Positions 33,733 through 57,043 of a DNA stretch of 64,000 nucleotides are shown here, one piece after another. The notes under the pieces were generated by a model. It saw nothing but the letters and a program-made list of their open reading frames with translations. It was not told the origin of the DNA and did not search any database. The DNA lies in IMG/VR virus record IMGVR_UViG_3300045988_181536, positions 32,001 to 96,000 of that record; one strand, written 5' to 3'. Position numbers and translations under genes: made by a program. The DNA is from a virus. Every line of letters starts with the position of its first letter. Position 1 is the first letter of the stretch.

Positions 33733-33803
33733 AGTCGCATGGTGTAATGGTAGCACAGATGATTTTGGTTCATTTAGTCTAGGTTCAAACCCTAGTGCGA
33801 CTA
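33733..33803 (+). tRNA. tRNA-Gln (anticodon TTG)
   Basis: Acceptor AGTCGCA/TGCGACT (7 bp). D-arm GTGT-AATGGTA-GCAC. Anticodon stem GATGA/TCATT with loop TTTTGGT. T-arm CTAGG-TTCAAAC-CCTAG. 71 nt, no encoded CCA. Confidence 0.8.
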
Positions 33804-33819
33804 TTGTTCTTTTTCAAAC

Positions 33820-37963: not shown

Positions 37964-38659
37964 ATGCAATTTTCGCCTAAATTTTACACGAACATATTTC
38001 AACATACAATTACCATTCCAATTCCTCCGGTGCATAACAGCACGGAGAAATTTTTTATCGATTTAACTTTTACCGAATGGCAGCTTAGCGAATGGTTTAA
38101 AAATAGCTGGCATGCGACTTGGGAAAACTTAAAATCAATGTTTATTCCCGGATATAAGTTTTGCATGAATTATATCGGTATTAAGTTTACCGTTTATGAA
38201 GAAGTCTTAGACGAGCATGGGTTTCGGCAAAACAAGTTAAAATTTGAAACCAATAAAGTATTTGAAAAAGATAACCCCGAAGCGGTGTTAAACGCCATGA
38301 CAACCCTATTCGGGCCCTTGTTTTATTGCGTAAATGCTGCATCTGACCAGTGTCAAACAATATCAAAATGGGGCATATCCTTTGCAAATCAGAAAACCGA
38401 TCAACAAAATTCGGAAGAACACGTAGCTAAAAAGTCTGATTTTAGTTATGTTATGGCAATCTATACGGATCCTGAGCATCATGAAATCAGTTGGGTAATC
38501 AGCCGCACGCATAAAAATATTTATTTTGCGTTTAGATTTAGTTCAGTAGCAGATTTAAAGTCTGTTTGCAGGGAAATCGAAAACGCTTTTGCGGATTTTT
38601 TCAACAATTATTATCCGAGTTTGCGTGTGTATAAGCCGATAATTGCGCCAATTGCATGA
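37964..38659 (+). CDS. hypothetical protein
   Basis: 231-aa ORF. Confidence 0.4.
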   Translation: MQFSPKFYTNIFQHTITIPIPPVHNSTEKFFIDLTFTEWQLSEWFKNSWHATWENLKSMFIPGYKFCMNYIGIKFTVYEEVLDEHGFRQNKLKFETNKVFEKDNPEAVLNAMTTLFGPLFYCVNAASDQCQTISKWGISFANQKTDQQNSEEHVAKKSDFSYVMAIYTDPEHHEISWVISRTHKNIYFAFRFSSVADLKSVCREIENAFADFFNNYYPSLRVYKPIIAPIA

Positions 38660-38796
38660 AACCGATATTAAGATCGCTGATTAACCAAGCCATCCGTGCA
38701 AAATCTATTTTACAGACGGGTCGAGCATTTCATGCCACCATCGCTTTAAAAGGAAGCAAAGTAATAGCTATCGGATGTCAACTACTCACCAGATGA
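38656..38796 (+). pseudogene. N-terminal fragment of a CDA-fold (dCMP/TadA-like) deaminase truncated by IS insertion
   Basis: MKPILRSLINQAIRAKSILQTGRAFHATIALKGSKVIAIGC resembles the deaminase N-terminal strand/helix. Reading frame runs into the IS end at about 38776 and terminates. Confidence 0.35.
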
Positions 38797-40136
38797 ACTA
38801 GTGAGCTTGATTTATATGTTTAAATCAATTTTAGACACTTCATTGCTTATGCTTGTTAAATCCTTAGTAGGCTTATCAAGTCTTATTTCAGCTCCATGTC
38901 TGTAATCATCCGTTGCAGATGATAGGATTGTTAATCCTCTTGTTAAAATATTTTTAGCAGCATTAACATCTCTGTCTAAAACTGTTCCGCATTGGGGACA
39001 TACCCAAAATCTATCTTTTAAAGTTAGGCTTTGATTAATATATCCGCAATTATGACAAGTTTTTGACGAAGGGTAAAAATGGTCTATTTTAATTATCTTC
39101 TTACCTTTCCATGCTGCTTTATATTCTAATTTTTGTATCATGCTATTCCAAGAGACATCTGCAATAGCATAAGCCAATTTATGATTTTGCATCATATTTT
39201 TAACAGCTAATGTCTCTAAACAAATTACATCATATTTGTTTAACAACAAGGTACTTAGTTTATGTTGCATATCTTCACGAGAATTGGTTATCTTTTCATG
39301 AAGTTTTGCTATTTTAATTCTAAGTTTTTCTTTTCTATTAGAACCTTTTTGTTTTTTGGAAAAGTGTTTTTGAAGCTTGGATAGTTTTGATTGATATTTC
39401 TTTTGAAATTTTAAGTTGGGATATCGTTTACCATCAGATGTTATAGCAAAATCTTTAATTCCCAAATCTATGCCCACTGCTTTTGTTAAATCTGCAGCAT
39501 CAGGAATACATACGTTTTGTTCTGTTAAAATAGAAACATAATATTTGCCTGACGGTTTTTTAGAAATTGTCGCACTACAAATTTTACCTTTTAAAGGTCT
39601 ATGATTAACAAACTTTATACCGTTCTTAAATTTGGGAATATATATTTTATCATTTTTAATAGCTACATTCTGTGGAACATTAAAAGAATTGTTTCCGTCT
39701 TTACGTTTAAACTTGGGAAATTTAGACTTTTTACTAAAGAATTTTCCAAAAGCCGTTTCTAAATTTTTTAATGATTGTTGAAGGCTTTGGGAATTAACAT
39801 CTTTTAACCACACATATTCCTTTTGCTTTTTAAGTGTAGTTAGAGCTTGTGAGCAATTATTGTAATTTAAAGTCTTTTTATTTTTAAGGTAAAATTCCTG
39901 TTTCTCTTTAAGAAAGTAATTATATACAAATCGGCAATGCCCAAAATGCAATGATAATAGTTCTTTGTCTTCAGGTGAGGGGTAAAGCCTATATTTATAG
40001 GATTTGTATATTGTTTTATTCATTATTTAAGTTAAACTAAAAACTACTTAGAATCAAATAGCAACAAAAAAAAATAAGAATCTATAATAACTTAAACAAA
40101 ACCCCACCATTCATCTTACCAGACAAGCTGGTAAGT
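38776..40136 (-). mobile_element. IS200/IS605-family insertion element carrying tnpB only (IS1341-like)
   Basis: TnpB ORF flanked by subterminal hairpins: ctcaccagatgaactagtgag (38783-38803) at the 3' end and cttaccagacaagctggtaag (40115-40135) at the 5' end. No tnpA. Flanking sequence on both sides encodes pieces of one deaminase-like gene. Confidence 0.6.
38812..40023 (-). CDS. tnpB: TnpB (OrfB) RNA-guided endonuclease / IS605-family transposase accessory protein
   Basis: N-terminal OrfB_IS605 HTH (YKYRLYPSPEDKELLSLHFGHCRFVYNY), RuvC-like core, C-terminal zinc ribbon CHNCGYINQSLTLKDRFWVCPQCGTVLDRDVNAAKNI. Confidence 0.8.
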   Translation of the reverse strand: MNKTIYKSYKYRLYPSPEDKELLSLHFGHCRFVYNYFLKEKQEFYLKNKKTLNYNNCSQALTTLKKQKEYVWLKDVNSQSLQQSLKNLETAFGKFFSKKSKFPKFKRKDGNNSFNVPQNVAIKNDKIYIPKFKNGIKFVNHRPLKGKICSATISKKPSGKYYVSILTEQNVCIPDAADLTKAVGIDLGIKDFAITSDGKRYPNLKFQKKYQSKLSKLQKHFSKKQKGSNRKEKLRIKIAKLHEKITNSREDMQHKLSTLLLNKYDVICLETLAVKNMMQNHKLAYAIADVSWNSMIQKLEYKAAWKGKKIIKIDHFYPSSKTCHNCGYINQSLTLKDRFWVCPQCGTVLDRDVNAAKNILTRGLTILSSATDDYRHGAEIRLDKPTKDLTSISNEVSKIDLNI

Positions 40137-40139
40137 TTT

Positions 40140-40319
40140 CTGGTGGAAATTAATAAAATTACGATTGTTAACCTAAGAATTGATAACAATAACCAAGTAG
40201 CAAACGCAAAACCTTGTGTAAACTGTCAACGAGTTTTAAAACAATTTAATTTTAAACATATTTTTTATACCAATGAGCAAGGGCAATTTGAAGAGTTTAA
40301 GATTGCGGTCGAAGATTAA
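40140..40319 (+). pseudogene. C-terminal fragment of the CDA-fold deaminase
   Basis: ...ANAKPCVNCQRVLKQFNFKHIFYTNEQG... contains the PCxxC zinc-binding motif of cytidine/dCMP/tRNA-adenosine deaminases. In frame from the IS boundary to a stop at 40319. Confidence 0.4.
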
Positions 40320-43610: not shown

Positions 43611-44228
43611 ATGTCCAATTCCAACGAAACAAACAACAAAAAACCAAAGCTTCAATTAGAAGCGGTATATAAAGCGTTAGAGGATCCTAATACTTTTGCT
43701 ACGGTATTATTGACCATATGTCTAATTCAATACGGCGAAGAAACATTTAAGGTGGATCCTTTAGTATTATTTGCATGGTTGGAGGAAGATTTTGGCCTGG
43801 AATTAAATGAAGATAACCAAAATAAGTTAAATGCCATAATAACAGCATTAACTACGGATTATTTTTATAATGATTTGCAGACTTTTAAAGCCATCTGTAA
43901 AACGCTTACAAGTGGAGATCCTGGAATTGTAGAAACTGATTTGGATGCTGATGAAGTAACGGTGCCGGAAATTCTTTGGGGTATTTATGAAGTAAGTTTG
44001 TGTAATGACGACGAAGTAGTAAATACGTATAAATTTAATAGCGTAATTAAAAGTTTTATTAACGTCGTTTTAAAAAATGAACCCATGGATCAAACTTTAG
44101 AGTTGAATCCTGAAGAATTAAATATCATAAAACATAATTGTAACGAAATAAAACTGCAATTAATGAATTTGGGAATTAAAAATCTTCCTAAATTTCCAGA
44201 AATTGAAGTTAACACCGATAACGAGTAG
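43611..44228 (+). CDS. acidic hypothetical protein
   Basis: 205 aa, Asp/Glu-rich. Confidence 0.4.
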   Translation: MSNSNETNNKKPKLQLEAVYKALEDPNTFATVLLTICLIQYGEETFKVDPLVLFAWLEEDFGLELNEDNQNKLNAIITALTTDYFYNDLQTFKAICKTLTSGDPGIVETDLDADEVTVPEILWGIYEVSLCNDDEVVNTYKFNSVIKSFINVVLKNEPMDQTLELNPEELNIIKHNCNEIKLQLMNLGIKNLPKFPEIEVNTDNE

Positions 44229-44296
44229 TAGCGCAATCTGGTTAGTGCACCTGCTTTGGGAGCAGGGGGTTGGGGGTTCAAATCCCTCCTACTCGA
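44222..44296 (+). tRNA. tRNA-Pro (anticodon TGG)
   Basis: Acceptor CGAGTAG/CTACTCG. D-arm GCGC-AATCTGGTTA-GTGC. Anticodon stem CCTGC/GCAGG with loop TTTGGGA. T-arm GGGGG-TTCAAAT-CCCTC. Discriminator A. 75 nt. Confidence 0.75.
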
Positions 44297-44397: not shown

Positions 44398-44470
44398 GCC
44401 AGCTTAGCTCAATTGGTAGAGCAATGGCTCCATAAACCATAGGTTGTCGGTTCAAGTCCGGCAGCTGGCA
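44398..44470 (+). tRNA. tRNA-Met or tRNA-Ile2 (anticodon CAT), elongator type
   Basis: Acceptor GCCAGCT/AGCTGGC (G1:C72). D-arm GCTC-AATTGGTA-GAGC. Anticodon stem ATGGC/ACCAT with a 31:39 C-A mismatch, loop TCCATAA. Position 33 is C rather than U, which is unusual. T-arm GTCGG-TTCAAGT-CCGGC. Confidence 0.6.
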
Positions 44471-44506
44471 CCGTTTTCTGTATTATAAACTAGCAAATAT
44501 CTATCT

Positions 44507-44731: not shown

Positions 44732-45043
44732 ATGAATAAACTACCAGCAGAAGACATAACCTATTTGGCGTGCATCTGGGAAAAACTACACGCCGACAGG
44801 GATATAGTCTTATCTCAAAGATACGTGGAAATAACGGTATTGCGAGTATTTAAAGCAAGCAACGGGCAGTGCTATTACAAAATCGAAATTAGGAATCCCA
44901 AAGGTTTCACGGAACATTGGGTGCCTGAAGAAATTTTTTCTAAATACACGCTGACCAATGAAAACCAATTTAAGAAAATTGAAATCATTGATGAGCTGCC
45001 CTCGCCTAAACCGAAGCAACGGTTGTATTTCGATTCCGAATAA
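44732..45043 (+). CDS. hypothetical protein
   Basis: 103 aa. Converges on the terminase gene. Confidence 0.4.
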   Translation: MNKLPAEDITYLACIWEKLHADRDIVLSQRYVEITVLRVFKASNGQCYYKIEIRNPKGFTEHWVPEEIFSKYTLTNENQFKKIEIIDELPSPKPKQRLYFDSE

Positions 45044-46931
45044 TATTTCGCATATCCCTGCCGTATTTGAAATAGTTTCGGAAAAGCTCCATGCCTACTT
45101 CGTCTTCAAATAAAGACTCACCTAATATAAGCTTTGCCAGTATAGTGGCATAGTTTACCGCATGTAACATGTCATCTGTTTTGGTTCCTGGTTTTGTATA
45201 TAAAAATCCCGTTACACCTTGCTGAGTTTCCCAGGGTACACGAGTTAAAACCAAGAAATCTTTTAAATATTCCATCGAATGTTCCCACCTAGGTGCACGT
45301 ATACGGCTGTTTTTTATGTCCATAAATAAGGTCGTAATGCTGTCAGTGCGGTGCAAGGAATACAAATTAAACATTTCGGACTTTTTCGGTATGGAGAGAA
45401 ATGTGCCTGTAGGTTTATATTTGAACATTATAACCTTTAAAGGATCCATAAGTTTTTTAATTTCATTTGCGTATACAGCGCCTCCACCATAGTCATTTGC
45501 TAAAGCATAACCTCCGAATTTATGATGATCATTAGCAATGCAATGGGTTATGTCATCATAATCCATGCCTGCATATTTCTTCATGTGAATAATATCAAAT
45601 TTTTTATCCGGAGTAACACCAATAATACAGTGTGCAGTATATGAAGCTTTGGAGCGTGATGCAGGATTATAATCAGATCCACCCCAGTCACAGCCGGAAA
45701 CTTTAAAAATATATTTAGGAGGTACGGCAGAAATTGCTTGTTTTTGCACGTCGTGTATGTCGCCTAAAATGCATATATTCTGCAAATCTCTGGTTGTTAA
45801 TTCTTTGGTTCCGGATTCCGTGGCTTCGCCCAGATACTCTTCCAAGAAAGATTTTTTATCTGAAGATTGGGAAGCTTTATAGATATCCAAATATATGGAT
45901 TGTTTTTCAGTATTTGCAGGAACGATAATCTGCGGAATATGGAATCCCCATAGTCCATACTTTAACATTTCCGGCGCTTCGAAATCCCAACAACCATCAC
46001 GGACATTTAAGACACGTCCGCATTTTAAACAACATAATCCCTTGGGTTGAATCATATCTAAAACATTATGATTTAAGTCGGGATAATTGTCAAAGTGGCA
46101 AGCAGGACATGTCATGCGCCAAAGCCCCCTCGAAGATTCTAACCAACGTTGTTCTAAGGGAGTATCAACTGATTTAGATGTGCCGCCATATACTACTGAT
46201 CTAAATTCGGAACGAGACTGGGTGGACTTAATAACACGCTCTAATGTATCATCAAAATCTTGATATTCGTCAAAATTTATCCAATCGAAAGTAGGTGAAC
46301 GCATTTTCGACGCATCGGAAAGAACATAATACATTCTATGCAAAGACATACGCGCTTTGCCGTGATCGTATTCTTTATAATAAAGATTTGTTTTAAACTT
46401 TGGATTGCGTTTATTGGGTTGAAATCTATAAGCCTGCTCAATTTCTTTGGATTTATATCCCAATGTTCTTAACTGATCCATTCGGGGCACAATCGTCGCA
46501 ATTCTTAAACCGGGAATAATACGACAATATAAATCGGCAGCCAACAGCATATTAGTGGTATTATGGCTTAAAATACCATTAGTAAAATAAGTATGAGAAG
46601 TGTCATTTTTTAATGTCACGTCATACATGGGAACTGCAGGACTATTTTGTTTATCTACAGAGATGATCTTGGAAATACCCTCTTTCGTTATCACCGATTC
46701 ATCCAGAGAATCCTTAGCATGAATCATTTGTCCATCCTTGGAAATAATCCCGTGTGTATCTGCGCAATTTAATGTCTTGTTGTTGGCCGTCTTAATTTGC
46801 CAGACATCAAAAGGTATCGTTTTATGAATAATATCAATATCTTCCCAGCCGTTCGACGTTTCTATCTGCCAATCTTCAATGGCATAACTTTCGGTAAATT
46901 TGGGATTTAAGGATTCAACTTTCTTGGACAT
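45006..46931 (-). CDS. terL: terminase large subunit, C-terminal portion (post-P-loop ATPase plus nuclease) preceded by an intein C-terminal (Hint) fragment
   Basis: ATG at 46931; the track start at 47045 is TTG followed by hydrophobic junk. Intein block B NCADTHGIISKDGQMIHAKDSL, block F/G MYDVTLKNDTSHTYFTNGILSHN|T. The extein starts exactly where T4 gp17 resumes after GK of SRQLGKTT (TNMLLAADLYCRII ~ TVVAIFLAHFVCF). Walker B WINFDEYQDF. Motif III YGGTSKS. Nuclease motifs VSGCDWGGSDY...HCIIGV and TKTDDMLHAVNYA. Confidence 0.7.
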   Translation of the reverse strand: MSKKVESLNPKFTESYAIEDWQIETSNGWEDIDIIHKTIPFDVWQIKTANNKTLNCADTHGIISKDGQMIHAKDSLDESVITKEGISKIISVDKQNSPAVPMYDVTLKNDTSHTYFTNGILSHNTTNMLLAADLYCRIIPGLRIATIVPRMDQLRTLGYKSKEIEQAYRFQPNKRNPKFKTNLYYKEYDHGKARMSLHRMYYVLSDASKMRSPTFDWINFDEYQDFDDTLERVIKSTQSRSEFRSVVYGGTSKSVDTPLEQRWLESSRGLWRMTCPACHFDNYPDLNHNVLDMIQPKGLCCLKCGRVLNVRDGCWDFEAPEMLKYGLWGFHIPQIIVPANTEKQSIYLDIYKASQSSDKKSFLEEYLGEATESGTKELTTRDLQNICILGDIHDVQKQAISAVPPKYIFKVSGCDWGGSDYNPASRSKASYTAHCIIGVTPDKKFDIIHMKKYAGMDYDDITHCIANDHHKFGGYALANDYGGGAVYANEIKKLMDPLKVIMFKYKPTGTFLSIPKKSEMFNLYSLHRTDSITTLFMDIKNSRIRAPRWEHSMEYLKDFLVLTRVPWETQQGVTGFLYTKPGTKTDDMLHAVNYATILAKLILGESLFEDEVGMELFRNYFKYGRDMRNIIRNRNTTVASV

Positions 46932-47004
46932 TTGTGAGTAATACAATATTAAGACTATATTATACGCAAGAAAAATTTCAAACTTAAAAATAGAAAGGAA
47001 AATT

Positions 47005-47787
47005 ATGCCAAATTGGGCGAATACAAATATAATCTTTTTCAGCAACGATGAAAAACAATTACAAGAATTATATAGCGTGATTTTTTATCGTGCGCCTAAT
47101 GCTTATGTGGAGGATATAAAACCGCTTTTAAATTCTAATTCTATAGGGAGCGGGTGGCTTGGTGCAATTCTTTACGAGTTAAAAGAAATTACTTTAGAAC
47201 AAATCGATAAGGACAATATTCCCGCAGATTTGCATTGCAGGGGTTGGGTGGAATTTGGTATTGACAGTGAACTTGTTCCAGAAAGAATCCCTAATCCTTA
47301 TTTGCAAAAGGATAAGCCAAGTTGGAGATTTGAAATTTTTACATATGATGCTTGGGAACCCAACATGAAAATGTGGGATTATATTATCAAAAAGCATTTT
47401 CCTGATGTGAAATTTGTTTATCGTAGCGAAGAAGGCGGTAATGGATTTTATGTAAATTCTGACTACCTACGTTTCTATTTTGACGAAGAATATATAGTTG
47501 ATTTAACCATCGATTTCGATAATTGTTCAGAATCAATCAAGAATATTTTTAAACCCGATGGTTCAACAGGAACCTGTGATTATTGTGAATATTTTGAATA
47601 TTATAATTTTCACGATTTTTGCAATTTCTTGAAGAGAAATTTTCGAGATGTTGGAGAAATCACAACCAAAGAAGATGCAGAGAAAGAAATCAAAAGAATA
47701 ACTGATGCTTTTGCAGCAGAGGATAATTCTGATTCTTGGTGCTACATTAACACATTTGACACTCCTGAAATTAGGTATGGACTCTGA
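47005..47787 (+). CDS. MPNW-start hypothetical protein (paralog 1)
   Basis: 260 aa. Preceded by the 34-bp leader ttaaaaatagaaaggaaaattatgccaaattggg, identical to the one at 48265. Confidence 0.45.
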   Translation: MPNWANTNIIFFSNDEKQLQELYSVIFYRAPNAYVEDIKPLLNSNSIGSGWLGAILYELKEITLEQIDKDNIPADLHCRGWVEFGIDSELVPERIPNPYLQKDKPSWRFEIFTYDAWEPNMKMWDYIIKKHFPDVKFVYRSEEGGNGFYVNSDYLRFYFDEEYIVDLTIDFDNCSESIKNIFKPDGSTGTCDYCEYFEYYNFHDFCNFLKRNFRDVGEITTKEDAEKEIKRITDAFAAEDNSDSWCYINTFDTPEIRYGL

Positions 47788-48268
47788 AAAAATAAACAAC
47801 GAAGAAATTATTAGTAAAGAACAATGGTTTGGTACTACCATAGATCCGAACCAAATAAATGATTATGCAATTTTTTATAAAGGCAAGTGGATATCTCTGG
47901 AAAACAAAGAACACTCAGAGAGATTCGAAGCTTTACGTGAAACTGCAGTTTATTATCCGGATATTTACAAATATAAATACAGAGGAGATTTAAAGTTTTT
48001 ATTTACGACTTACACATACCCCGACTTGGATAAGGATACTTTAGTATCCGAACAATGTCTAAGGCGAGGTGTTGCAGGGTATTATGAAGCAAAGGAACAA
48101 ACAATTTATTTTGTTCCTGGATATAGAACGTATGAAGAACAAGATCTGCATACGTATGTTCCGGGACCTAAAATACTTACCTTCAAATGCGATAGAATTA
48201 TAGATGGCTATTTAGCTGTAAAAATGATTAATGAAGATTGGGTAGAAAATTCGCAAGACGTTTTTTAA
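47777..48268 (+). CDS. hypothetical protein
   Basis: Start moved to the ATGGACTCTGA overlap with the upstream stop (MDSEKINNEEI...). Confidence 0.4.
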   Translation: MDSEKINNEEIISKEQWFGTTIDPNQINDYAIFYKGKWISLENKEHSERFEALRETAVYYPDIYKYKYRGDLKFLFTTYTYPDLDKDTLVSEQCLRRGVAGYYEAKEQTIYFVPGYRTYEEQDLHTYVPGPKILTFKCDRIIDGYLAVKMINEDWVENSQDVF

Positions 48269-48285
48269 AAATAGAAAGGAAAATT

Positions 48286-49074
48286 ATGCCAAATTGGGTA
48301 CGTAATCAAATTATTTTTAAAACTAAAGAAGATTTAAATAAAGCGCTTGAACTTTGTGGAATTGACACAAATCTGCAGAAAAAGGAGCATAAAATGGATT
48401 TTGGAGTGTTGGTTCCCATGCCAAAAATACTCGATCATCAATCCATTTATTACAACTCGACGCTCTATCCTCCGTTGCTTATAAATCCCGACTGGAATAG
48501 TGCCGTTGAAAAGTTTTGCGAAAGTGGATCTATCAATAAAGATTCAGACGAAGTAATCCCTGCGTTTATAGAATATTTAAAGAAGAGTGACAGCCCGTGT
48601 AAGGCAGAATCATTTACGGATTCACAACAGCAAGAAATTATTGAAGCTGTTTGCAAAAAGTTATGTGATGGATATAAAGATTGGTACGATTGGTCTATTG
48701 CCAAATGGGGATGCAAGTGGAATGCCAATTTGGTTGCAGTAACCGATTATTCAATAGTCTTCGACACTCCTTGGAGTTGCCCCGAACCTTGGATACGCGC
48801 GTTTGCAAGCGCTGATCCAAACTTAGACTTTTACGTCGCATGGGCGGATGAAGATATTTTTGGAGGTTTTTCGGGAATATTACAACGCCTGGAAGTAAAT
48901 GAACTTCCGGAAGATGCATCTGTAAACATTGATTTTGATAGCGACCTTATGGGGTCAATGTTTAGCGACGCCTTGTGGGATGGCTGGAACCAAATGTCTC
49001 CCAGCTTTGAAGGATGGTGGACAGGAGCTTTTCCGGAGGATTCAGACTTTTCTTGGCAAAAATGGGAATACTAA
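48286..49074 (+). CDS. MPNW-start hypothetical protein (paralog 2)
   Basis: Start placed at the second Met (MPNWVRNQIIF) behind the repeated agaaaggaaaatt leader. Confidence 0.45.
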   Translation: MPNWVRNQIIFKTKEDLNKALELCGIDTNLQKKEHKMDFGVLVPMPKILDHQSIYYNSTLYPPLLINPDWNSAVEKFCESGSINKDSDEVIPAFIEYLKKSDSPCKAESFTDSQQQEIIEAVCKKLCDGYKDWYDWSIAKWGCKWNANLVAVTDYSIVFDTPWSCPEPWIRAFASADPNLDFYVAWADEDIFGGFSGILQRLEVNELPEDASVNIDFDSDLMGSMFSDALWDGWNQMSPSFEGWWTGAFPEDSDFSWQKWEY

Positions 49075-49131
49075 ATTTAACTGTATTAGACAATATAAAA
49101 AATTATAAACAATAATAGAAAGGACCCTTAT

Positions 49132-50007
49132 ATGAAAAACAATAAAAACTATATAGTTCTTAGAGTAGAAGACAATCGCGTAATTAATTACGGGTTTGAC
49201 TACACGGATTATTTGCCACAGGGTAACAAGCCTGGAAAGTGGACTCCCAAGATTCCGGCTGCAAAAATCGAAGACTCACACTATAAAGTTTCTACCAACT
49301 GGATTTTTGCCTTATACGGTGAAATAATCGAGGAAGCGAGAATATTCGAAGTAGAAGTTAAGGGTAAAACTCGCATTGAACATGTTGCTGGAACCTCGCC
49401 TGAAATATTGTGTCAAACGATAAGGCTGGTCAAAGAAATTACTAAAACCTGTAAACGCAGGATAAAGTATTATGAAGACCGTGCTTTAGATAACCTACCC
49501 CCGCGTCCCAATTACAATATTGGATACCAAAATAGTCAGGGACCAAATGTGGGAAATCTTAACACCGGAACACGCAATAAAGGAGATTGCAATACCGGTC
49601 ACGGTAATATCGGAAATTATAATACCGGGGGTGCTAACGTGGGGCACGGAAACAGTGGATCATATAACATCGGCATCGAAAATACGGGAGACGGGAACAG
49701 AGGTAACTACAACACTGGTTTCTTTAATATAGGGGACCGTAACTGTGGTTGCTTCAATACCATATCTCCTAAATGTTATTTCTTTAATAAAGAAACAGAC
49801 GTAGATCCTCGTCGTATTCCTTGGCCTCTTTGGATTCTGAGGGTAAAATATCCTGAAAAGGAGATGTTTAAACTCGCATTCGATAGGGCTACAGTTAACG
49901 ACGTGCGTCTAACACTTGAGTTGCCAAACTTTGACTATCAAATCTTTGAGGAGATAACCGGCATATCCAAGGCAGATTTCAACAGAAAGCTGCGGAACAA
50001 CAAATAG
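49132..50007 (+). CDS. protein with tandem NTG-x2-N-x-G-x2 decapeptide repeats
   Basis: Central region NTGTRNKGDC NTGHGNIGNY NTGGANVGHG NSGSYNIGIE NTGDGNRGNY NTGFFNIGDR NCGCFNT, seven 10-residue repeats. SD agaaaggacccttatATG. Confidence 0.5.
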   Translation: MKNNKNYIVLRVEDNRVINYGFDYTDYLPQGNKPGKWTPKIPAAKIEDSHYKVSTNWIFALYGEIIEEARIFEVEVKGKTRIEHVAGTSPEILCQTIRLVKEITKTCKRRIKYYEDRALDNLPPRPNYNIGYQNSQGPNVGNLNTGTRNKGDCNTGHGNIGNYNTGGANVGHGNSGSYNIGIENTGDGNRGNYNTGFFNIGDRNCGCFNTISPKCYFFNKETDVDPRRIPWPLWILRVKYPEKEMFKLAFDRATVNDVRLTLELPNFDYQIFEEITGISKADFNRKLRNNK

Positions 50008-50027
50008 TATAAAAGAAAGGACAATGT

Positions 50028-50459
50028 ATGTCACAATGGACACATGTAGCTGGAGTAATTAGGATCGACGCCCTAAGGGACGGCGACGAAAGAGATATAC
50101 AGCAAGAGGAAGCTTTAAAGGGATTATTTCGTACTTGGTCTTATGGAGATCGTAATTCTAAAAGATCCAAGTGCAATGTTCCCTCTGGATCCGAGGGTTC
50201 TCTTCATGTAAAGATTGTCCCTGGGGAGGAACATTCCTTAGCTGCATATGCTGTATTGCTATGGGGAGACTTGCGAGATTTTGGGGACGCTGAAGATATT
50301 AAAAATCTGAAAAAGTGGTGGAAAAATTTAATCGACAAATTTGAACGCCCTGATCTTGCACCTCCTGAAATTAAAAATTGTTACCTCATGGGAATTAGGC
50401 AAGCTTGCCTAAAAATCGAAGTAGAGGGTACAGCTAAACCTATTATTTTAGGTAAATAA
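50028..50459 (+). CDS. hypothetical protein
   Basis: 143 aa. SD aaagaaaggacaatgtATG. Confidence 0.45.
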   Translation: MSQWTHVAGVIRIDALRDGDERDIQQEEALKGLFRTWSYGDRNSKRSKCNVPSGSEGSLHVKIVPGEEHSLAAYAVLLWGDLRDFGDAEDIKNLKKWWKNLIDKFERPDLAPPEIKNCYLMGIRQACLKIEVEGTAKPIILGK

Positions 50460-50491
50460 TGCTGGAACCCTTGTGTGTCTAATAACACTTA

Positions 50492-50612
50492 CATACCCAG
50501 TTGTTAAGTATATCTTAAGAACTGGGTGTAAAATAATGATATATAGCAACATAGAAAGTTCTGACCTATGAAGTTGATATGTCAACTACGCACCAAATGA
50601 ACTGGTGAGTTT
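50492..50612. mobile_element. IS605-family-like solo end / miniature palindromic element
   Basis: tgtcaactacgcaccaaatgaactggtgagttttctg closely matches the tnpB-element end tgtcaactactcaccagatgaactagtgag. The gttttctg tail matches ggtaagttttctgg at the other IS end. An additional hairpin catacccagtt...aactgggtgta lies just upstream. Confidence 0.4.
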
Positions 50613-50644
50613 TCTGAATTAAACAATATAAAAAGTTTGAACCT

Positions 50645-51004
50645 ATGGAGAAAGATAAAAACTACAGGCATAAGGATGTTACACCTTCCCAAAAGCAATA
50701 CATACGAGTTGGAGAGCTTCCTCCAGATGGAAAATCAAAAATTCGTTGTCGTGCCGATAATAGTATAATCGGAGAAGAGGAAGGGGTATCGGTCTTTGAA
50801 TATATCGAAGGACGAGGAATAGTAGTTCCTAATAATCAACAAGCACGCGATGATTTTTTAATACTTATGAACAGTATTGATAAACCTCAATATATCGTAA
50901 TAGGCGAGGAGATTGGGGTAGGAAGTGATGGGGAACCACTTTTAAGAGATGTCAAAATTATAAAAGTATTAAAAGAAGCAAACCAAAATTATCAAAATAG
51001 CTAA
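50645..51004 (+). CDS. hypothetical protein
   Basis: 119 aa. Confidence 0.4.
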   Translation: MEKDKNYRHKDVTPSQKQYIRVGELPPDGKSKIRCRADNSIIGEEEGVSVFEYIEGRGIVVPNNQQARDDFLILMNSIDKPQYIVIGEEIGVGSDGEPLLRDVKIIKVLKEANQNYQNS

Positions 51005-51083
51005 GTTTCTTTCATTTGAAAATGCAACCTAAGTTAAATTATTAACAAACAATAACTTCTTACTTTATTAGAAAAATGCACAC

Positions 51084-51572
51084 ATGAAAGACAGACCAAT
51101 ATTATTTTCATCCCCTATGGTAAGGGCGATTTTAGATGGCAAGAAAACGATGACGAGACGTATCTACAAGACGTGCTTTGATTCTTGGCAAGTCGGAGAC
51201 AGACTATGGGTTAAGGAGACATATCTCATTGCCCAAGATGATTCCATCAATACAAAAATTATATATGCAGCCACAGACCCTAACCTAATGGGGATAGGAT
51301 TTAATTATTCTGTGAAATGCTCAAGCAAGACACAGCTTCCAATATGGAAGCCATCAATCTTTATGCCTCGCAAGTATTCTCGTATTATGCTTGAAATTAC
51401 GGATATTAAACGCGAGCTGTTGCGAGATATATCGGAAGATGATGCCAAGCGGGAAGGCTTTGAAAATAGGCAGGAATTTATAGATTACTTTGAAGAAATT
51501 AACCCTGTGCTAAAGGAGCAAAATCCCGAGGTAGTAGCAATTGGATTTAAAGTTTTGGAGGTGAAGAGATGA
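51084..51572 (+). CDS. ASCH-domain protein (PUA-like fold)
   Basis: PMVRAILDGKKTMTRR near the N-terminus matches the ASCH signature (xMVxAILxGxKTxTRR). Confidence 0.5.
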   Translation: MKDRPILFSSPMVRAILDGKKTMTRRIYKTCFDSWQVGDRLWVKETYLIAQDDSINTKIIYAATDPNLMGIGFNYSVKCSSKTQLPIWKPSIFMPRKYSRIMLEITDIKRELLRDISEDDAKREGFENRQEFIDYFEEINPVLKEQNPEVVAIGFKVLEVKR

Positions 51573-51769
51573 GTTATAAAGATAAAACCTTCTGCCCAAA
51601 GGCAGACAAAAACAATTCTAAATGTATTCAATGTGATCGATTTTTCGATGAGAATGAATACAATAAATTCTGCATAAAGGCGGGATTTGAAATACCAGTT
51701 GCTTGGTTTTTGGAACCGCCTTGTGAAAAAGAAAATAAAAAAAGGAAAAAGGATAAAGATGAAAGATAA
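51569..51769 (+). CDS. small Cys-rich protein
   Basis: 66 aa with CPKAD...CIQCD...C...C. Possible zinc ribbon. Confidence 0.3.
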   Translation: MSYKDKTFCPKADKNNSKCIQCDRFFDENEYNKFCIKAGFEIPVAWFLEPPCEKENKKRKKDKDER

Positions 51770-52106
51770 AAACGGTATCGAAATTAAGTGTAAGAACTGT
51801 GCGAACTATGGAACGTATCTCTTCATGCCTTGCTTGCTTTGTTTACGAAAAAATGCAGGATTTAAGCCGACAGTAGAATCTTACGAAGCCCACATTGCGG
51901 AGTTGCAAAAGGAGCTGAATATCGTCCAAGAGTCCGAACACGCGGAAGCGCAAGAGGCGGATAGGCTTCGCGGGGAAGTCAAAGAGCTGAAGGCACACAA
52001 TGAGGTGCTTCAAAAGAGAGTGCAGGAGTTTTCAATGGAGCTTCTCGAATATAATATGAAGGAGAACAGGGACGTTTTGGAACGCCTTAAAGAGTGGAAA
52101 GAATGA
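51759..52106 (+). CDS. Cys-cluster plus coiled-coil protein
   Basis: Start moved to aaaggataaagATG (MKDKNGIEIKCKNCANYG...). C-terminal heptad coiled coil ending MELLEYNMKENRDVLERLKEWKE, a module repeated at 54622. Confidence 0.4.
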   Translation: MKDKNGIEIKCKNCANYGTYLFMPCLLCLRKNAGFKPTVESYEAHIAELQKELNIVQESEHAEAQEADRLRGEVKELKAHNEVLQKRVQEFSMELLEYNMKENRDVLERLKEWKE

Positions 52107-52163
52107 ATTATTAAGTAATACTTAACAGCTGAAGTAAGTTAATAAAAATAATATATTTAAAAA

Positions 52164-52394
52164 TTGAAATCAGTGAAACTAAGTCAACAGAAACTACTCC
52201 ATTATATGCAGGAAAAGCCTAAGAGGGACTTTTTTACTGACAAAATTATTGAAATTGTAGAGCCAAAAAATGCAGAAGATTTCATTATAGTAGGACAACT
52301 TCTGAAGTGTATTAAAACAACTCGTTATAGCGTTGGTTCCGGAAAGATTGAGGCAATCACAAACGACAAAATCAAAAGAAAGGATAAACAATGA
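52164..52394 (+). CDS. hypothetical small protein
   Basis: 76 aa. Confidence 0.3.
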   Translation: MKSVKLSQQKLLHYMQEKPKRDFFTDKIIEIVEPKNAEDFIIVGQLLKCIKTTRYSVGSGKIEAITNDKIKRKDKQ

Positions 52395-53080
52395 AAGAAA
52401 AAAGAATAGATTCCCACAAGCTAGACAAAATTTTACATCAGCATAGCCTTTGGTTGTCAGAGAAAGGCCGAAGAGGTAAACGTGCTTATTTGGCTCATTC
52501 AGATCTTAGTGGGTTGGATTTAAGCGGTGCTAATTTACAATACGCACATTTATACGGTGCAAATCTAAATGATACAAATCTTAGTAAAGCATTTCTTGAT
52601 AAAGCGGATCTAACTTTTGCAAACTTAAAGAAGGCCTTTCTTTATCATACTAATTTATCATGGTCCAATCTCCAAGGTGCAAACCTTGAAGATGCGACAT
52701 TAAGTGACGCAATTCTTTATGCTGCAAATTTGTGTGACGCGAAACTTCAGTGCGCAGACTTAAGAGACGCAGATCTTCGTTTTGCAAATTTAAACCACGC
52801 GAACCTATATCATGCACAGCTGGAAGATGCTCTTCTTAAAGGTGCAGACCTGAGTGAGGCTAAGACTGATGATAGAATACTTTGTCTTGATCGAATTGGT
52901 TCCTCCAAGCGGCGAACAACTTACAACATCACAAAAGATATTGTATGGTGTGGTTGCTTTACGGGAACCTTTAAAGAATGGATATCACGAATCCGTGAAA
53001 CTTATCCTGATAAGAATAGTATTTGTAGAAAGGAATACGAAGCAGCGATAGCTTATTTTAGAGCTATCGCGAAAGACTAA
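52391..53080 (+). CDS. pentapeptide-repeat protein (Qnr/MfpA-like fold)
   Basis: About 25 consecutive A(D/N)LxX pentapeptides (DLSGLDLSGANLQYAHLYGANLNDTNLSKAFLDKADLTFANLKKAFLYHTNLSWSNLQGANLEDATLSDAILYAANL...). C-terminal ~70-aa non-repeat domain. Confidence 0.8.
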   Translation: MKEKRIDSHKLDKILHQHSLWLSEKGRRGKRAYLAHSDLSGLDLSGANLQYAHLYGANLNDTNLSKAFLDKADLTFANLKKAFLYHTNLSWSNLQGANLEDATLSDAILYAANLCDAKLQCADLRDADLRFANLNHANLYHAQLEDALLKGADLSEAKTDDRILCLDRIGSSKRRTTYNITKDIVWCGCFTGTFKEWISRIRETYPDKNSICRKEYEAAIAYFRAIAKD

Positions 53081-53107
53081 CCAGCCAACTTCCAACTTTG
53101 TATAATT

Positions 53108-53656
53108 ATGAAAATACAAATTCGACAAAATATTTTTGAGACTAACAGTTCATCTTCCCATTCTATCACAATAACTGAAAAGAATGGGGAATTTTCTGAA
53201 CAATTTAAATCACGGTTTTTGTATGAATGGAATCCCGGTGTTATTCCCCACAGAACAGATTATTGTAAAGGTGCGGATAGGTTAGATTATTTTAAATACA
53301 AACCGAAAAGTTATTATTGCGAATCCAATGAAACGTATCACTTATATGGTGGTCAATTTGGCTTGGATTGGTTTTGTTGCGACACGTTTGACGCAAAAGT
53401 TGAATACCTATACACTTGGATGCATTCGGTATCTACAACATTCTATAAAGATAACCTATTTGACTGTATAGCAAAACATTATAACATTTCTGTGGAAAAT
53501 ATTGAAGAGGAAACAATCGATCCCAATTCAATATGGGTAGATCATGCTAGTGCTACCTGGGATTTACTGAAGGGCTACTACAGTGGGGATGATCGTATTT
53601 CTTATATTCTTGAAAATCCAAATGTGTTAATATTAGGAGGCAACGATGATGGGTAA
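53108..53656 (+). CDS. hypothetical protein
   Basis: 182 aa. Confidence 0.4.
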   Translation: MKIQIRQNIFETNSSSSHSITITEKNGEFSEQFKSRFLYEWNPGVIPHRTDYCKGADRLDYFKYKPKSYYCESNETYHLYGGQFGLDWFCCDTFDAKVEYLYTWMHSVSTTFYKDNLFDCIAKHYNISVENIEEETIDPNSIWVDHASATWDLLKGYYSGDDRISYILENPNVLILGGNDDG

Positions 53657-53709
53657 AAAGCTTAAACAAATAATCAAGAACACTTTAACAATATTCTTAA
53701 AACCGCCTT

Positions 53710-54156
53710 GTGAAGAAGAAAGGACTAACAATGAGAAATAGCATAGATGTTTCGCAATTAGAACATCTTCGAGACGGAATATATCGCGCATTTGAAGGAG
53801 AGATATACGGCTATCCCGTTTGCATTATCACCACAAAAAGTCTACCTGAATTTGATATGGGAGACTACTATTGTGGCTATGTAGGAGTCCCGCCTTCTCA
53901 TCCACTGTATCAAATAGGCTATATGGATAATATTATGGCGCAAGTAGATAACGATGCTGAAGTTAATGGCGGGCTTACATATAGCAGAATGGCAGACAGT
54001 TGGAGGACTACGAAAGACGAGTTTAAAGACTATTGGTTCTTCGGCTTCGATTGTGCACATTATTGGAACGAGGAGCATCCCTGCTCTTTTGAAGATGTTA
54101 AAGCCGATTGCGAAGGTTTGGCTTTGGCTTTAAAGAATTATAGAAAAGACCAATAA
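53710..54156 (+). CDS. hypothetical protein
   Basis: 148 aa. Confidence 0.4.
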   Translation: MKKKGLTMRNSIDVSQLEHLRDGIYRAFEGEIYGYPVCIITTKSLPEFDMGDYYCGYVGVPPSHPLYQIGYMDNIMAQVDNDAEVNGGLTYSRMADSWRTTKDEFKDYWFFGFDCAHYWNEEHPCSFEDVKADCEGLALALKNYRKDQ

Positions 54157-54209
54157 AGTTGCACTTTTTAGTTAAAAATTATAATAAAAAATTATAAAAA
54201 GGAATAACA

Positions 54210-54677
54210 ATGGAAGAAATCGGAGAAAATAAAATTAGGGTAACGGTGGATGTAGACGTTGATAAAATACGTTCCGATTTGATAAGAAATCTATCTGAAC
54301 AGTGGAATGAGGAAACACCAGAGTCAGAAGAAGAGATATATAATCGTGCAATAAAAAGTGCTAAATACTTCATCGATACAGAAGTCAAGAAAGCCATAGT
54401 TGAGGAGGCGAAGAAACAATTTTTTGAGAATCCAGAACTAAAAGAGTATCTTGCTACTTCCATAAAAAACAGGATAAAAGAAACCTTCTTTACGGAGTTT
54501 CTTACAGGATTGATGCCCTATCAACTGGAGAAGATGATAGAAAAGGGGTATCATAATCGCATTGGTGAGATATCACCAATAAATATTGTTTTTAGCGAAG
54601 AGGAGAGTGGAGGAGTTTTCAATGGAGCTTCTCGACCGCACGATGAAAGAGAACAAGGACGTTTTGGAACGGCTTAA
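54210..54677 (+). CDS. acidic coiled-coil protein
   Basis: 155 aa. The 3' end overlaps a shifted-frame copy of the MELL...VLERLK module. Confidence 0.4.
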   Translation: MEEIGENKIRVTVDVDVDKIRSDLIRNLSEQWNEETPESEEEIYNRAIKSAKYFIDTEVKKAIVEEAKKQFFENPELKEYLATSIKNRIKETFFTEFLTGLMPYQLEKMIEKGYHNRIGEISPINIVFSEEESGGVFNGASRPHDEREQGRFGTA

Positions 54678-54705
54678 ACAGGCAGAAAGCGAGAAAGAAT
54701 AGCCA

Positions 54706-55017
54706 ATGAAAACAAAACGCTGCCCATTCTGTGGAAGTAATGGTATATATACCAAACATTTGCCTATTGGTCTATATTGCGTAGCTTGTACAAAATGCGG
54801 AGCATCTTCAGGACCATTCCTTAACGAGGATGACGCAGAAGAAGCTTGGAACAAAAGGCAAGAGCAATTTAGTCTTAGCGATATGGAACTCCTAAGAGAT
54901 ATCGTTGAAGCTGAGTTAAAATCTGTTAAACGAGACAGTGAATATAGATGTTCATTACTAAGATTGTCTATTAAATGCATGGATGTTTTAAACGATTTAA
55001 ATGAAGGAGAATACTAA
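54706..55017 (+). CDS. Lar-family restriction alleviation protein
   Basis: KRCPFCGSNGIYTKHLPIGLYCVACTKCGASSGPF...DAEEAWNKRQE matches the Lar family pattern CPFCG...Y...C..CGA...EA..RWNKR (cf. E. coli Rac Lar KPCPFCG...YRAKCNGCESRTGYGGSEKEALERWNKR). Confidence 0.7.
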   Translation: MKTKRCPFCGSNGIYTKHLPIGLYCVACTKCGASSGPFLNEDDAEEAWNKRQEQFSLSDMELLRDIVEAELKSVKRDSEYRCSLLRLSIKCMDVLNDLNEGEY

Positions 55018-55408
55018 AATGAGCGTATACATATATAAAACCCAAAATAATCAAAAAGATGAGATAGTCCTCGAAGAACATGAAGAAATTATTGACTTCA
55101 TAGATTCGTGGTTTAGAAACCAAGTGTGCGCGGTAAGTGACCGTGACGCAGAACAAGTAAAAAACCATTTATTCTCTTCGAAGCTTTTGGACAAGCTAGA
55201 AAACGATTGCTGGGATGCTATGGGACAAAAGGAGTACGCAATAGTCATCTGGAATACACCTGCTTGGTTTATCCAAAATGAAGAGGATCTCTGCGGTTAC
55301 TATAACACTATGCTAAGAATAATCTTTGCTATAAAAAAATTGAGAAAAGCATATGGGAGTGACTGGGAGCACGCAAAGTTTATATTCGAAAGCGACGTTA
55401 CGAAATGA
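55001..55408 (+). CDS. hypothetical protein
   Basis: 135 aa. Confidence 0.4.
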   Translation: MKENTKMSVYIYKTQNNQKDEIVLEEHEEIIDFIDSWFRNQVCAVSDRDAEQVKNHLFSSKLLDKLENDCWDAMGQKEYAIVIWNTPAWFIQNEEDLCGYYNTMLRIIFAIKKLRKAYGSDWEHAKFIFESDVTK

Positions 55409-55953
55409 AACCCATACTAGATGTCTGTTGTGGCGGACGCATGTGGTGGTTTGATAAAAACGATGAACGTGCGGTGTTTATGGATAAGCGCACCTACGAG
55501 GGAACGTTATGTGATGGCAGACACTTTGAGGTAAAGCCAGATATCTTGGGAGATTTTACAAATATTCCATTTCCAGATGAAAGTTTTCACCTTGTAGTAT
55601 TTGACCCGCCACACTTGGAAAAGCTTGGAGAAACATCCTGGCTTTGTATTAAATATGGTAAGCTTCCAAGCGATTGGAAGGACAAACTAACAAAGGCATT
55701 TGAGGAATGCTTTCGGGTGCTAAAGCCTTTTGGAACATTAGTGTTTAAGTGGAACGAAGAGCAAATAAAGCTCAGTGAAATCTTAAAGCTTACTACAGCA
55801 AAACCTGTAGTTTTGCCTAAAAGATTTGAAAACCGTTATATCGTGGAAATCGATGGGGGCAATGGTTGGGCGTGTTTTATGTGTGCCCGTCCGATTGGGC
55901 GTCGGATAGAACCGCAAATCGACGGAGATATATATACTTGGGAGGAGAAATAA
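55405..55953 (+). CDS. small amino-methyltransferase (DPPH motif) fused to the paralog-family C-terminal module
   Basis: Motif I-like LDVCCGGRMWWF. Motif IV FHLVVFDPPHL, the (D/N)PP(Y/F/H) signature of N6-adenine / N4-cytosine / m2G methyltransferases. The last ~50 aa (GNGWACFMCARPIGRRIEPQIDGDIYTWEEK) are homologous to the C-termini of genes 55956, 61891, 62463 and 63117. Confidence 0.55.
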   Translation: MKPILDVCCGGRMWWFDKNDERAVFMDKRTYEGTLCDGRHFEVKPDILGDFTNIPFPDESFHLVVFDPPHLEKLGETSWLCIKYGKLPSDWKDKLTKAFEECFRVLKPFGTLVFKWNEEQIKLSEILKLTTAKPVVLPKRFENRYIVEIDGGNGWACFMCARPIGRRIEPQIDGDIYTWEEK

Positions 55954-55955
55954 AT

Positions 55956-56453
55956 ATGAATAAAAAACTAAAAATCCAATTCTGGAAAGCCGAGAAAGCT
56001 TTAGCAATGCAAATACTGGAACAGGAGGGTTTGCCGAAACGTAAAAACGAGGGAAACGTCCGCGTTTGGGACTACATTGCGCTCTTCAAAGAAGCTATAG
56101 TTTTAGGCGGAATAAATGAGTTCGATTTACATATTCCACACATTATATTCGACACCAACGCCGAGCGCGATGCCTATTTGGATAAAGTCATCAACGCAAT
56201 CACCGAGGAACTTTTCTCGGGCGAAGGCGAACTTAAAGTCGGGGAGATGTGCGAGGTTAGTGATGATGGTGTATCTTGGCACAAATATAGACTCTTAGCT
56301 ATATTGCCCGACCGTTATGAAATGAGATTCATTATAGAGAATGGAACACTGAGTTGGTGCACTTGCACATACGCTCGCCCTATTGTCAAGCGCATTGAGC
56401 CTACGCTCGATAAGCGTGGGAATGTCTTCACTTATACCTGGGAGGAAAAATAA
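55956..56453 (+). CDS. MQILEQEG/YTWEEK paralog family member 1
   Basis: Start at the GGAGGAGaaataaatATG site. KALAMQILEQEG...LLAILPDRYEMRF...CTYARPIVKRIEPTLDKRGNVFTYTWEEK. Confidence 0.5.
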   Translation: MNKKLKIQFWKAEKALAMQILEQEGLPKRKNEGNVRVWDYIALFKEAIVLGGINEFDLHIPHIIFDTNAERDAYLDKVINAITEELFSGEGELKVGEMCEVSDDGVSWHKYRLLAILPDRYEMRFIIENGTLSWCTCTYARPIVKRIEPTLDKRGNVFTYTWEEK

Positions 56454-56551
56454 GAAACTCCATAGCGGGTGTCGTAAGGTTACGGATAATCCTAATAATC
56501 AACAAAACAAAAATGCTTGAACTTTAAATTAAGATTTGCTGGCATTGAAAT

Positions 56552-57043
56552 ATGTCAACAAATCTTATGCCTAAAACAACTACTTTGCCTGCCGCGACTT
56601 CTGATTCAAACGGGGGATTTTTTGATATTGAAAAGTTGATTCGTACTGACGCTTTTTTCTTTGATAAGGTGGAAAAAGCCGTAAAGCATTTGATGAAAAT
56701 GCACGAGCAGCTAAAAGCTAACTATAGCGACCAAAATTTAAAATTATATAGGGAAGCTTTCTTTGACTATTTAAAGTTAACTCATTTTAGCATATCACCG
56801 CTATTGGGATATTATTATCCTAAGTATCCTTTAGGAACACCCCTGTCTTTAAAAGACTTTCCGTTTGCACATATATTTTATAATTTAAATATAGGTCCAT
56901 CATGTTCTACAGTATTTAGAGGAAGCCGACAGATTTCCAAATGCTGCACAGGGGATACCATATGCAGATTTAAAAATAAAAAAACAGGACAAGTAGTTAC
57001 TATGTCGCTGGAAGATTTCTTTAAAGAACAAAAAACAATTTAA
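56552..57043 (+). CDS. hypothetical protein
   Basis: 163 aa. Confidence 0.4.
   Translation: MSTNLMPKTTTLPAATSDSNGGFFDIEKLIRTDAFFFDKVEKAVKHLMKMHEQLKANYSDQNLKLYREAFFDYLKLTHFSISPLLGYYYPKYPLGTPLSLKDFPFAHIFYNLNIGPSCSTVFRGSRQISKCCTGDTICRFKNKKTGQVVTMSLEDFFKEQKTI

Follow-up and report, generated by a model that had tools for sequence, protein, structure and literature searches.

The window analysed here, a 64,000-nucleotide stretch of viral DNA (positions 32,001 to 96,000 of IMG/VR record IMGVR_UViG_3300045988_181536), encodes the large subunit of a phage terminase (TerL) in two open reading frames (ORFs) that lie on opposite strands. The two ORFs also carry the parts of an atypically split intein, a 33-amino acid (aa) N-terminal fragment (IntN) in one and a 124-aa C-terminal fragment (IntC) in the other, each fused in frame to its extein. 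We consider it very probable that the TerL of this phage is made from the two genes by protein trans-splicing. We infer the splicing, and with it the expression of both genes, the association of the fragments and the chemistry, from the anatomy of the genes, their conservation and the predicted structure of their products.

Two ORFs on opposite strands encode the parts of TerL

The larger ORF (45006-46931, minus strand) encodes 641 aa with the N-terminus MSKKVESLNPKF. Its first 124 aa (46560-46931, minus strand) are IntC, which comprises a linker, block B (NCADTH), block F (MYDV...SHTYF) and block G (GILSHN). With a slash marking the splice junction here and below, the block F-G motif reads MYDV...SHTYFTNGILSHN/T, and the IntC C-terminus ...YFTNGILSHN is followed by TTNMLL. 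The remaining 517 aa and stop codon (45006-46559, minus strand) are the C-extein, which contains Thr+1 (the Walker-A Thr), Walker B, the coupling motif and an RNase-H-like nuclease. PHROG 675 (terminase large subunit) matched residues 204-604 of the ORF with E=1e-30, the first ~140 profile positions being absent, and the C-extein is 77% identical to the intein-less homologue P0005 (residues 121-630). Thr+1 stands exactly where intein-less homologues resume past the Walker-A lysine, as in GSRQIAK/STNMLL of P0005. The initial annotation of this DNA, made from the letters alone, had described an intein C-fragment, Thr+1 and a TerL resuming past that lysine, and the PHROG match and the P0005 alignment show these sequence facts to be correct.

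It had also reported that the ORF lacks block A, Cys1 and Walker A, and we likewise found none of the three within or upstream of it. The in-frame, TTG-initiated extension to 47045 is low-complexity only, overlaps the start of the neighbouring plus-strand gene and occurs in no homologue. About 14 N-terminal residues that had been called non-intein belong to IntC, since their counterpart in alignments with contiguous homologues is the intein linker. IntC as a whole aligns with the intein of these homologues, starting just past their first helix, and when the window was scanned in all six frames with a profile of the intein family, IntC was the sole HINT match (E=1e-45).

The partner was said to be missing from the 64 kb and to be sought elsewhere in the genome; it is in fact in the window. 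A tblastn search with the N-termini of full-length homologues gave one strong match, at 56618-57022 on the plus strand (E=1.5e-44 with P0006; E=4e-44 with P0005). The match lies in an ORF of 163 aa (56552-57043, plus strand) with its own start and stop codons, 9.6 kb from the C-half. This ORF ends ...STVFRGSRQISK/CCTGDTICRFKNKKTGQVVTMSLEDFFKEQKTI, that is, ...FRGSRQISK, a Cys-initiated peptide and the stop codon. Its first 130 aa (56552-56941, plus strand) are the TerL N-extein ending in the Walker-A motif GSRQISK. The next 33 aa, CCTGDTICRFKNKKTGQVVTMSLEDFFKEQKTI, are IntN (56942-57043, plus strand, with the stop codon at 57041-57043) and consist of block A with Cys1, strands beta1-beta2 and helix alpha-1. 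In the contiguous inteins of P0006, P0021 and P0027, IntN corresponds by alignment to the first ~35 aa. The shape predicted for the partner was thus borne out in a protein of 163 aa that reaches RQISK and closes with a 33-aa Cys-initiated IntN. A regular expression that required G[KR] before Cys or Ser, close to where an ORF ends, missed it because the N-half motif is SK and not GK. A 403-aa minus-strand ORF (38812-40023) was considered as the N-half and rejected, as it encodes TnpB.

Joined in silico, the exteins give a 647-aa TerL of 74.6 kDa. Over 630 aa the product runs colinear with P0005, which has no intein (75% identity), and the sole gap is distant from the junction, where GSRQISK-TTNMLLAADLYCR stands opposite GSRQIAK-STNMLLSSDLYCR without gaps. 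PHROG 675 matched the spliced product with E=3e-31. Walker A is complete only once both ORFs are joined, and considering that Walker A and Walker B are on separate genes, neither fragment alone can be an ATPase. The AlphaFold2 (AF2) model of the spliced protein (predicted local distance difference test score, pLDDT, 85.6) places the junction inside the strand-loop-helix of the P-loop (strand 119-124, helix 130-144). A single-sequence phmmer search of the spliced TerL against PDB returned no terminase. In Foldseek the model had T4 gp17 as its best PDB match (3cpe, E=1.4e-13), in agreement with the downstream motifs that the initial annotation had aligned with that protein, and it also matched the large terminases of HK97, Sf6 and D6E.

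In the mechanism that we propose, gene 1 (56552-57043, plus strand) would yield an 18.8-kDa protein consisting of the 130-aa TerL N-terminus and the 33-aa IntN. Gene 2 (45006-46931, minus strand) would yield a 73.6-kDa protein in which the 124-aa IntC, with all remaining splicing blocks, precedes the 517-aa remainder of TerL. IntN would dock onto the incomplete IntC to give a complete class-1 HINT fold. Cys1 would form a thioester, Thr+1 would attack it and the terminal Asn would cyclise. The resulting peptide bond between the exteins (GSRQISK-TTN) would leave an intact P-loop and the 647-aa TerL.

The fragments are predicted to complete an intein fold

We searched for related proteins and obtained 276 relatives; the class counts given here and below cover the best 120 clusters. 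Cys131 of the N-fragment directly follows GSRQISK and is the position-1 nucleophile of the intein, a position held by Cys or Ser in relatives. The block-B His, the block-F Asp and the terminal His-Asn are invariant across an alignment of 12 family members (the fused pair of the window, four contiguous homologues and seven IntC regions). The block-B Thr is replaced by an invariant Ala (NCADTH), as it is in the fast-splicing VidaL (CAFNH; PMC13014065). At the junction, either HN/S or HN/T is found in all 33 C-fragment clusters.

The family-intein profile matched solved inteins, with VidaL (6vgv, E=5e-18) ahead of gp41-1 (1e-10) and CatC (6dsl_B, 4e-9). An AF2 model of the fused 157-aa IntN and IntC had a mean pLDDT of 95.9 and a predicted template-modelling score (pTM) of 0.88. 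In a Foldseek search of this model against PDB, all 50 listed matches were inteins or bacterial intein-like (BIL) domains, with VidaL at the top (E=2.3e-8, TM 0.78/0.84). On this model we are confident that the fused fragments would adopt the HINT horseshoe fold. The gene break falls directly after the modelled helix 23-33 (alpha-1), which is the S2 atypical split site, and AceL-TerL and GOS-TerL are broken at the same site (PMC13014065).

These structural results have to be weighed against the possibility that the intein halves are a non-covalent dimerisation module that does not splice, with TerL acting as a two-chain enzyme. Split-intein halves bind each other strongly ahead of any chemistry, and a fold prediction speaks only to complementation. 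Against such a module, the catalytic residues (Cys/Ser1, block-B His, block-F Asp, His-Asn and Ser/Thr+1) are conserved in the 33 C-fragment clusters and in the N-fragments, which binding alone would not need. If the complex did not splice, a 157-aa domain would moreover remain in the Walker-A loop, between Lys and Thr, where it would interrupt the P-loop. TerL precursors with a P-loop intein are regarded as incapable of building the active site or assembling into the pentamer until they are spliced (PMC5050341). We regard a two-chain enzyme without splicing as improbable.

Several results weigh against trans-splicing. Pfam gave no intein or Hint match on the C-fragment, and on the fused intein PF14890 stayed below threshold (E=0.061, 13.6 bits, cut-off 35.8). 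A single-sequence phmmer search of the fused intein against PDB returned no match. The AF2 model is of an artificial fusion and does not speak to the association of the separate pieces. No convincing promoter match was found upstream of the N-half, and a second, intact terL may lie outside the visible 64 kb of the genome, given relatives with contigs of up to about 150-180 kb. Since the Pfam scores are sub-threshold and phmmer against PDB was empty, recognition of the intein rests on the family profile and the predicted structure. Of the profile check proposed for the Hint region, the Pfam part therefore failed and the comparison of the family profile with PDB inteins succeeded. Taken together, the reading of the locus as a trans-spliced atypical split intein is supported by every sequence-level test that we ran, with the splicing itself being what we infer from them.

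Split relatives retain both halves in varying arrangements

More than half of the clusters (68 of 120) are uninterrupted TerLs of ~615 aa with the Walker-A motif GSRQIxK[ST]. A contiguous mini-intein from the same family follows the Walker-A Lys directly in six clusters, for example P0006 (RGSRQIGK/CVIGDT...GILSHN/TTN). P0006, P0021 and P0027 are contiguous alleles of the same intein at the same site as the split intein of the window. Larger inserts in the same region were found in seven clusters; several match the LAGLIDADG/Hom_end families PF14528 and PF05204 and one matches PF14890 (Intein_splicing). The 33 C-fragment clusters start with the IntC region, like the ORF in the window, and have no N-extein, and the remaining six clusters are truncated. 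The N-fragments form six clusters (149-179 aa), and every one stops 33-46 aa past the Walker-A Lys.

The uninterrupted terL is antiparallel to all its neighbours in loci L010 (no intein) and L004 (contiguous intein). The C-half of the window retains this orientation together with the downstream neighbours (205-aa and 367-aa genes). Among the split relatives and the window the halves occur in at least four arrangements. In L006 both halves share a strand, with the N-half 6.2 kb upstream of the C-half. In L001 the N-half is on the opposite strand, and the 950 bp that separate it from the start of the C-half contain one DUF1281-like gene. The N-half is likewise on the opposite strand in the window, 9.6 kb and ~17 ORFs from the C-half. 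In L012 and L013 the N-half is accompanied by a ~370-aa nuclease-like gene. This pair is collinear with the C-half in L013, 5.3 kb upstream with five other genes intervening, and inverted relative to the C-half in L012.

The ~370-aa gene follows the N-half directly (L012, 2922-4525, minus strand; L013, 4225-5843, plus strand) and has zinc-finger/ROS_MUCR and Vsr/DUF559/MTES_1575 nuclease matches. Because all the nuclease matches are below the Pfam curated thresholds, the assignment as a Vsr-like nuclease is tentative. The gene is likely a free-standing homing endonuclease.

In principle, a contiguous intein-containing terL could have been split by a chimeric join, by a false inversion or frameshift, or by some other artefact of sequencing or assembly, and short exact repeats do occur in the region of the break. 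Two independent assemblies from other samples nevertheless reproduce both halves with their flanks. L014 reproduces the C-half and its upstream genes (94% nucleotide identity over 4.2 kb), and L015 the N-half, its stop codon and the downstream gene (94.7%). In L001-L003, L006, L012 and L013 the N and C ORFs are also separate, with proper stops and starts. A frameshift, moreover, is unable to shift the N-part 9.6 kb onto the opposite strand. We consider an artefact extremely improbable.

We next compared the halves for selection. Relative to the distant relatives L001 and L006, the synonymous divergence (dS) was saturated for most segments, and the non-synonymous divergence (dN) of the intein parts was 0.24-0.56. 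As this saturation made the comparison uninformative, dN/dS was redone with the 94%-identical relative (L014 and L015). The ratio was 0.11 for IntC, 0.12 for the N-extein, 0.03 for the C-extein and 0.23 for IntN, the last from just three non-synonymous and three synonymous differences. These values indicate that IntN and IntC are both under purifying selection. Low dN/dS in both halves argues against a pseudogene or an artefact.

The same values bear on whether the halves are decaying remnants of a rearranged terL, with an intact terminase outside the window doing the packaging. The visible sequence is 64 kb only, and the region is prone to rearrangement: its gene order varies, 5' regions are duplicated and TnpB elements are present. 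Decay is opposed by a dN/dS of 0.03-0.23 in all four segments against the close relative, and by two intact ORFs that have been kept from 98% to ~35% identity across many independent assemblies. Neither the window nor the fetched loci of the relatives (up to 22 kb; gene lists and searches) contained a second TerL-like sequence. Decaying remnants therefore seem highly improbable to us.

Some relatives differ in their nucleophiles. L012, L013, P0125 and P0126 have Ser at intein position 1 in place of Cys (GSRQI[GS]K/S...), and the partner C-halves of L012 and L013 have Ser+1 (HN/STN). On their sequences, the L012 and L013 pairs would be natural atypically split inteins with Ser1/Ser+1 nucleophiles. 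These relatives keep other cysteines, such as Cys8, and are not cysteine-less in the sense of the literature, where natural cysteine-less atypically split inteins are described as very rare and PolB16 is said to be the sole one (PMC13014065). In another variation, four 844-aa C-fragment homologues (P0092 and P0096-P0098) start with IntC and are ~200 aa longer. They have a second intein-like insert after the Walker-B region (...DESVHPNT...FANGIAIHN/C), which would mean a split and a contiguous intein within one terL.

Comparison with known split and P-loop inteins

Reports of unevenly split TerL inteins date back to 2009-2014 (PMC2677866; PMC11766414). Dassa et al. (2009, PMC2677866) described a GOS terminase with a 122-aa IntC that lacks only motif N1 and is broken at an unusual point. 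The IntN is 25 aa in AceL-TerL and 37 aa in GOS-TerL (Ser1/Cys+1), and an engineered consensus, Cat-TerL, has also been characterised (PMC11766414, PMC13014065). The IntC of the known atypically split TerL inteins is 104-122 aa (PMC2677866, PMC11766414, PMC13014065).

The intein of the window resembles AceL-TerL, GOS-TerL and Cat-TerL in its host protein, its origin in uncultured phages and its combination of a short IntN with a long IntC that lacks only block A/N1. It shares the break after helix alpha-1 with AceL-TerL and GOS-TerL, and block G, YYTNGI(V/L)SHN, with Cat-TerL, whose CatC chain the family profile matched as given above, so that homology between the sequences is detectable. We made the comparison with AceL-TerL and GOS-TerL through the CatC chain (PDB alignment) and natural relatives of CatC. 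These relatives read ...SHN/CEFLGS... about 50 aa before the nuclease-like ITVDVARG and have Cys+1, which places their insertion at the ATPase-nuclease linker. In contrast, the intein of the window sits at the Walker-A K/T with Cys1/Thr+1, as against Ser1/Cys+1 in GOS-TerL, and its IntC is only 24% identical to CatC. Because the CatC relatives sit at the CEFLGS site and identity is this low, the intein is not allelic with AceL-TerL or GOS-TerL. It further differs from all three in its divergent TerL family and in having its halves on opposite strands, 9.6 kb apart.

VidaL is the closest solved intein in both structure and sequence (27% identity). It shares the block-B motif C-A-x-x-H and is also naturally atypically split with a short IntN, but its break is at S1, after beta2, with a 16-aa IntN (PMC13014065). 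By insertion point only, the intein can be likened to the TerL1-a inteins of mycobacteriophages. They occupy the same point, where the invariant Walker-A Lys meets the nucleophilic Thr, known as the 'classic' P-loop site (Kelley et al. 2016, PMC5050341), but are contiguous and cis-splicing and belong to another TerL family (terminase_1). Homing endonuclease (HEN) domains have been identified in some TerL inteins, TerL1-b and -c (PMC5050341). The split DnaE inteins of cyanobacteria (Ssp/Npu DnaE) likewise join the halves of an essential enzyme from separate loci by trans-splicing (PMC2677866). They are canonically split (IntN ~100-120 aa, IntC ~35 aa), have a cellular host and interrupt another extein.

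The locus also resembles what Dassa et al. (2009, PMC2677866) called 'fractured genes', conserved genes for phage enzymes in which the break lies within an intein. The nuclease gene of L012 and L013 resembles the free-standing 'Vsr-like' homing endonucleases of that study. Fractured genes were defined there by halves on one strand in the original order with an endonuclease gene between them. The window departs from this definition, as its halves are antiparallel, 9.6 kb and ~17 genes apart, and have no endonuclease gene. No homing-endonuclease gene was found between or beside the TerL halves in the window, and the window also has no homologue of the Vsr-like nuclease encoded beside the N-half in L012 and L013. 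Considering that it has no nuclease homologue, the window looks like the late 'uncoupled' stage of the model in PMC2677866.

The origin may be pictured as follows. A contiguous mini-intein at the classic P-loop K/T site would have been broken after alpha1, probably by a free-standing Vsr-like endonuclease gene that still adjoins the N-half in two distant relatives. In the lineage of the window the nuclease would then have been lost, and the halves separated and inverted relative to each other. TnpB genes occur near the TerL halves in the relatives L001, L006 and L013, and the window has one away from its halves. A role for them as drivers of the TerL rearrangements is speculation.

Genomic context of the terminase halves

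The window is AT-rich and phage-like (GC ~36%), and related contigs are 125-183 kb. Nearly all genes are on the plus strand; among ORFs of at least 100 aa, the minus strand has just two convincing genes, TnpB (38812-40023) and the TerL C-half (45006-46931). A sigma-70-like promoter match (TTGAAA-16-TATAGT; 46954-46981, minus strand) precedes the C-half start codon by 23 nt. It is at the level of consensus only, in a region with 22 such matches against 12 expected by chance, and is possibly the own promoter of the antiparallel C-half. The N-half is probably co-transcribed with plus-strand genes.

A megablast search of 20 kb of the window against 50,697 phage records gave no matches, and by tblastn the known TerLs that were found were only ~24% identical. 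Eight large ORFs (482-1028 aa) at 2331-31513 had no PHROG match at E<=1e-5. The phage thus appears to belong to a very divergent, uncultured lineage. Besides the two halves, no second TerL-like or HINT-like sequence was found in the window.

The spacer between the halves (46932-56551, plus strand) is 9.6 kb long with ~17 ORFs, including two DUF1281-like paralogues, pentapeptide-repeat proteins, an ASCH protein and a methyltransferase-like protein. An exact 34-nt direct repeat (46984-47017 and 48265-48298) spans the 5' untranslated region and first codons (MPNW) of the two paralogues, which are DUF1281_C-like (47005-47787 and 48286-49074). L001 has a single DUF1281-like gene, between its TerL C-half and N-half. 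Given the repeat at the paralogue starts and the one copy in L001, the 1.28-kb segment looks like a duplication or insertion through recombination at the repeat. A second direct repeat (79 nt, 86% identity; 52016-52094 and 54603-54681) overlaps the 3' ends of ORFs 51687-52106 and 54210-54677, which suggests paralogous gene ends.

Directly downstream of the N-half, ORF 57054-59246 (plus strand) encodes a 730-aa protein in which polynucleotide kinase, metallophosphatase and T4-type RNA ligase are fused (phrog_8238, E=2e-185; Pfam families taken from the L008 homologue). By these families, the product is predicted to be an RNA-repair enzyme of the type that heals cleaved tRNAs. The window has tRNA genes for Gln-TTG (33732-33804), Pro-TGG (44222-44296) and Met-CAT (44398-44472), and the latter two fall in the interval that separates the conserved 205-aa gene from the C-half 3' end.

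The TnpB ORF (38812-40023, minus strand; Pfam HTH_OrfB_IS605, OrfB_IS605 and Cas12f1-like_TNB) interrupts a dCMP-deaminase-like gene at 38656-40319. Residues 1-40 of the 145-aa homologue in a relative correspond to 38656-38775 (70% identity) and residues 78-136 to 40125-40301 (58% identity). The middle ~37 aa are gone, including the H[AS]E zinc motif.

Implications for split inteins and TerL

A further proposal, made jointly with that of a natural Ser1/Ser+1 split family, is that the opposite-strand halves are no neutral relic but a post-translational gate on the packaging ATPase; we hold it to be unlikely. The N-half would be made with the plus-strand block, beside RNA-repair and other non-structural genes, and the C-half from its own antiparallel promoter, with active ATPase forming only if both programmes overlap. 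If there is such a gate, selection on timing would explain why the N-half has been moved and inverted repeatedly among close relatives.

What is new here is a combination, namely an S2-type natural split at the P-loop K/T with Cys1/Thr+1, in a divergent TerL family and with halves on opposite strands. The only atypically split inteins named in PMC13014065 and PMC11766414 are AceL-TerL, GOS-TerL, VidaL and PolB16. To these the locus adds a non-allelic family at the Walker-A K/T with Cys1/Thr+1 and 33 C-fragment clusters, some relatives being Ser1/Ser+1. A specialist would not be surprised by the finding, which is useful to those who develop intein tools and as an evolutionary series. For annotation, it is a warning that a TerL without Walker A need not be a pseudogene or a misassembly. 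Within one TerL family, the relatives form an unusually complete series of an empty site, a contiguous mini-intein, a HEN-containing intein, a split intein with an adjacent Vsr-like nuclease and a split, scattered intein. This series documents later steps of the 'fractured gene' model, that is, how split inteins arise and uncouple.

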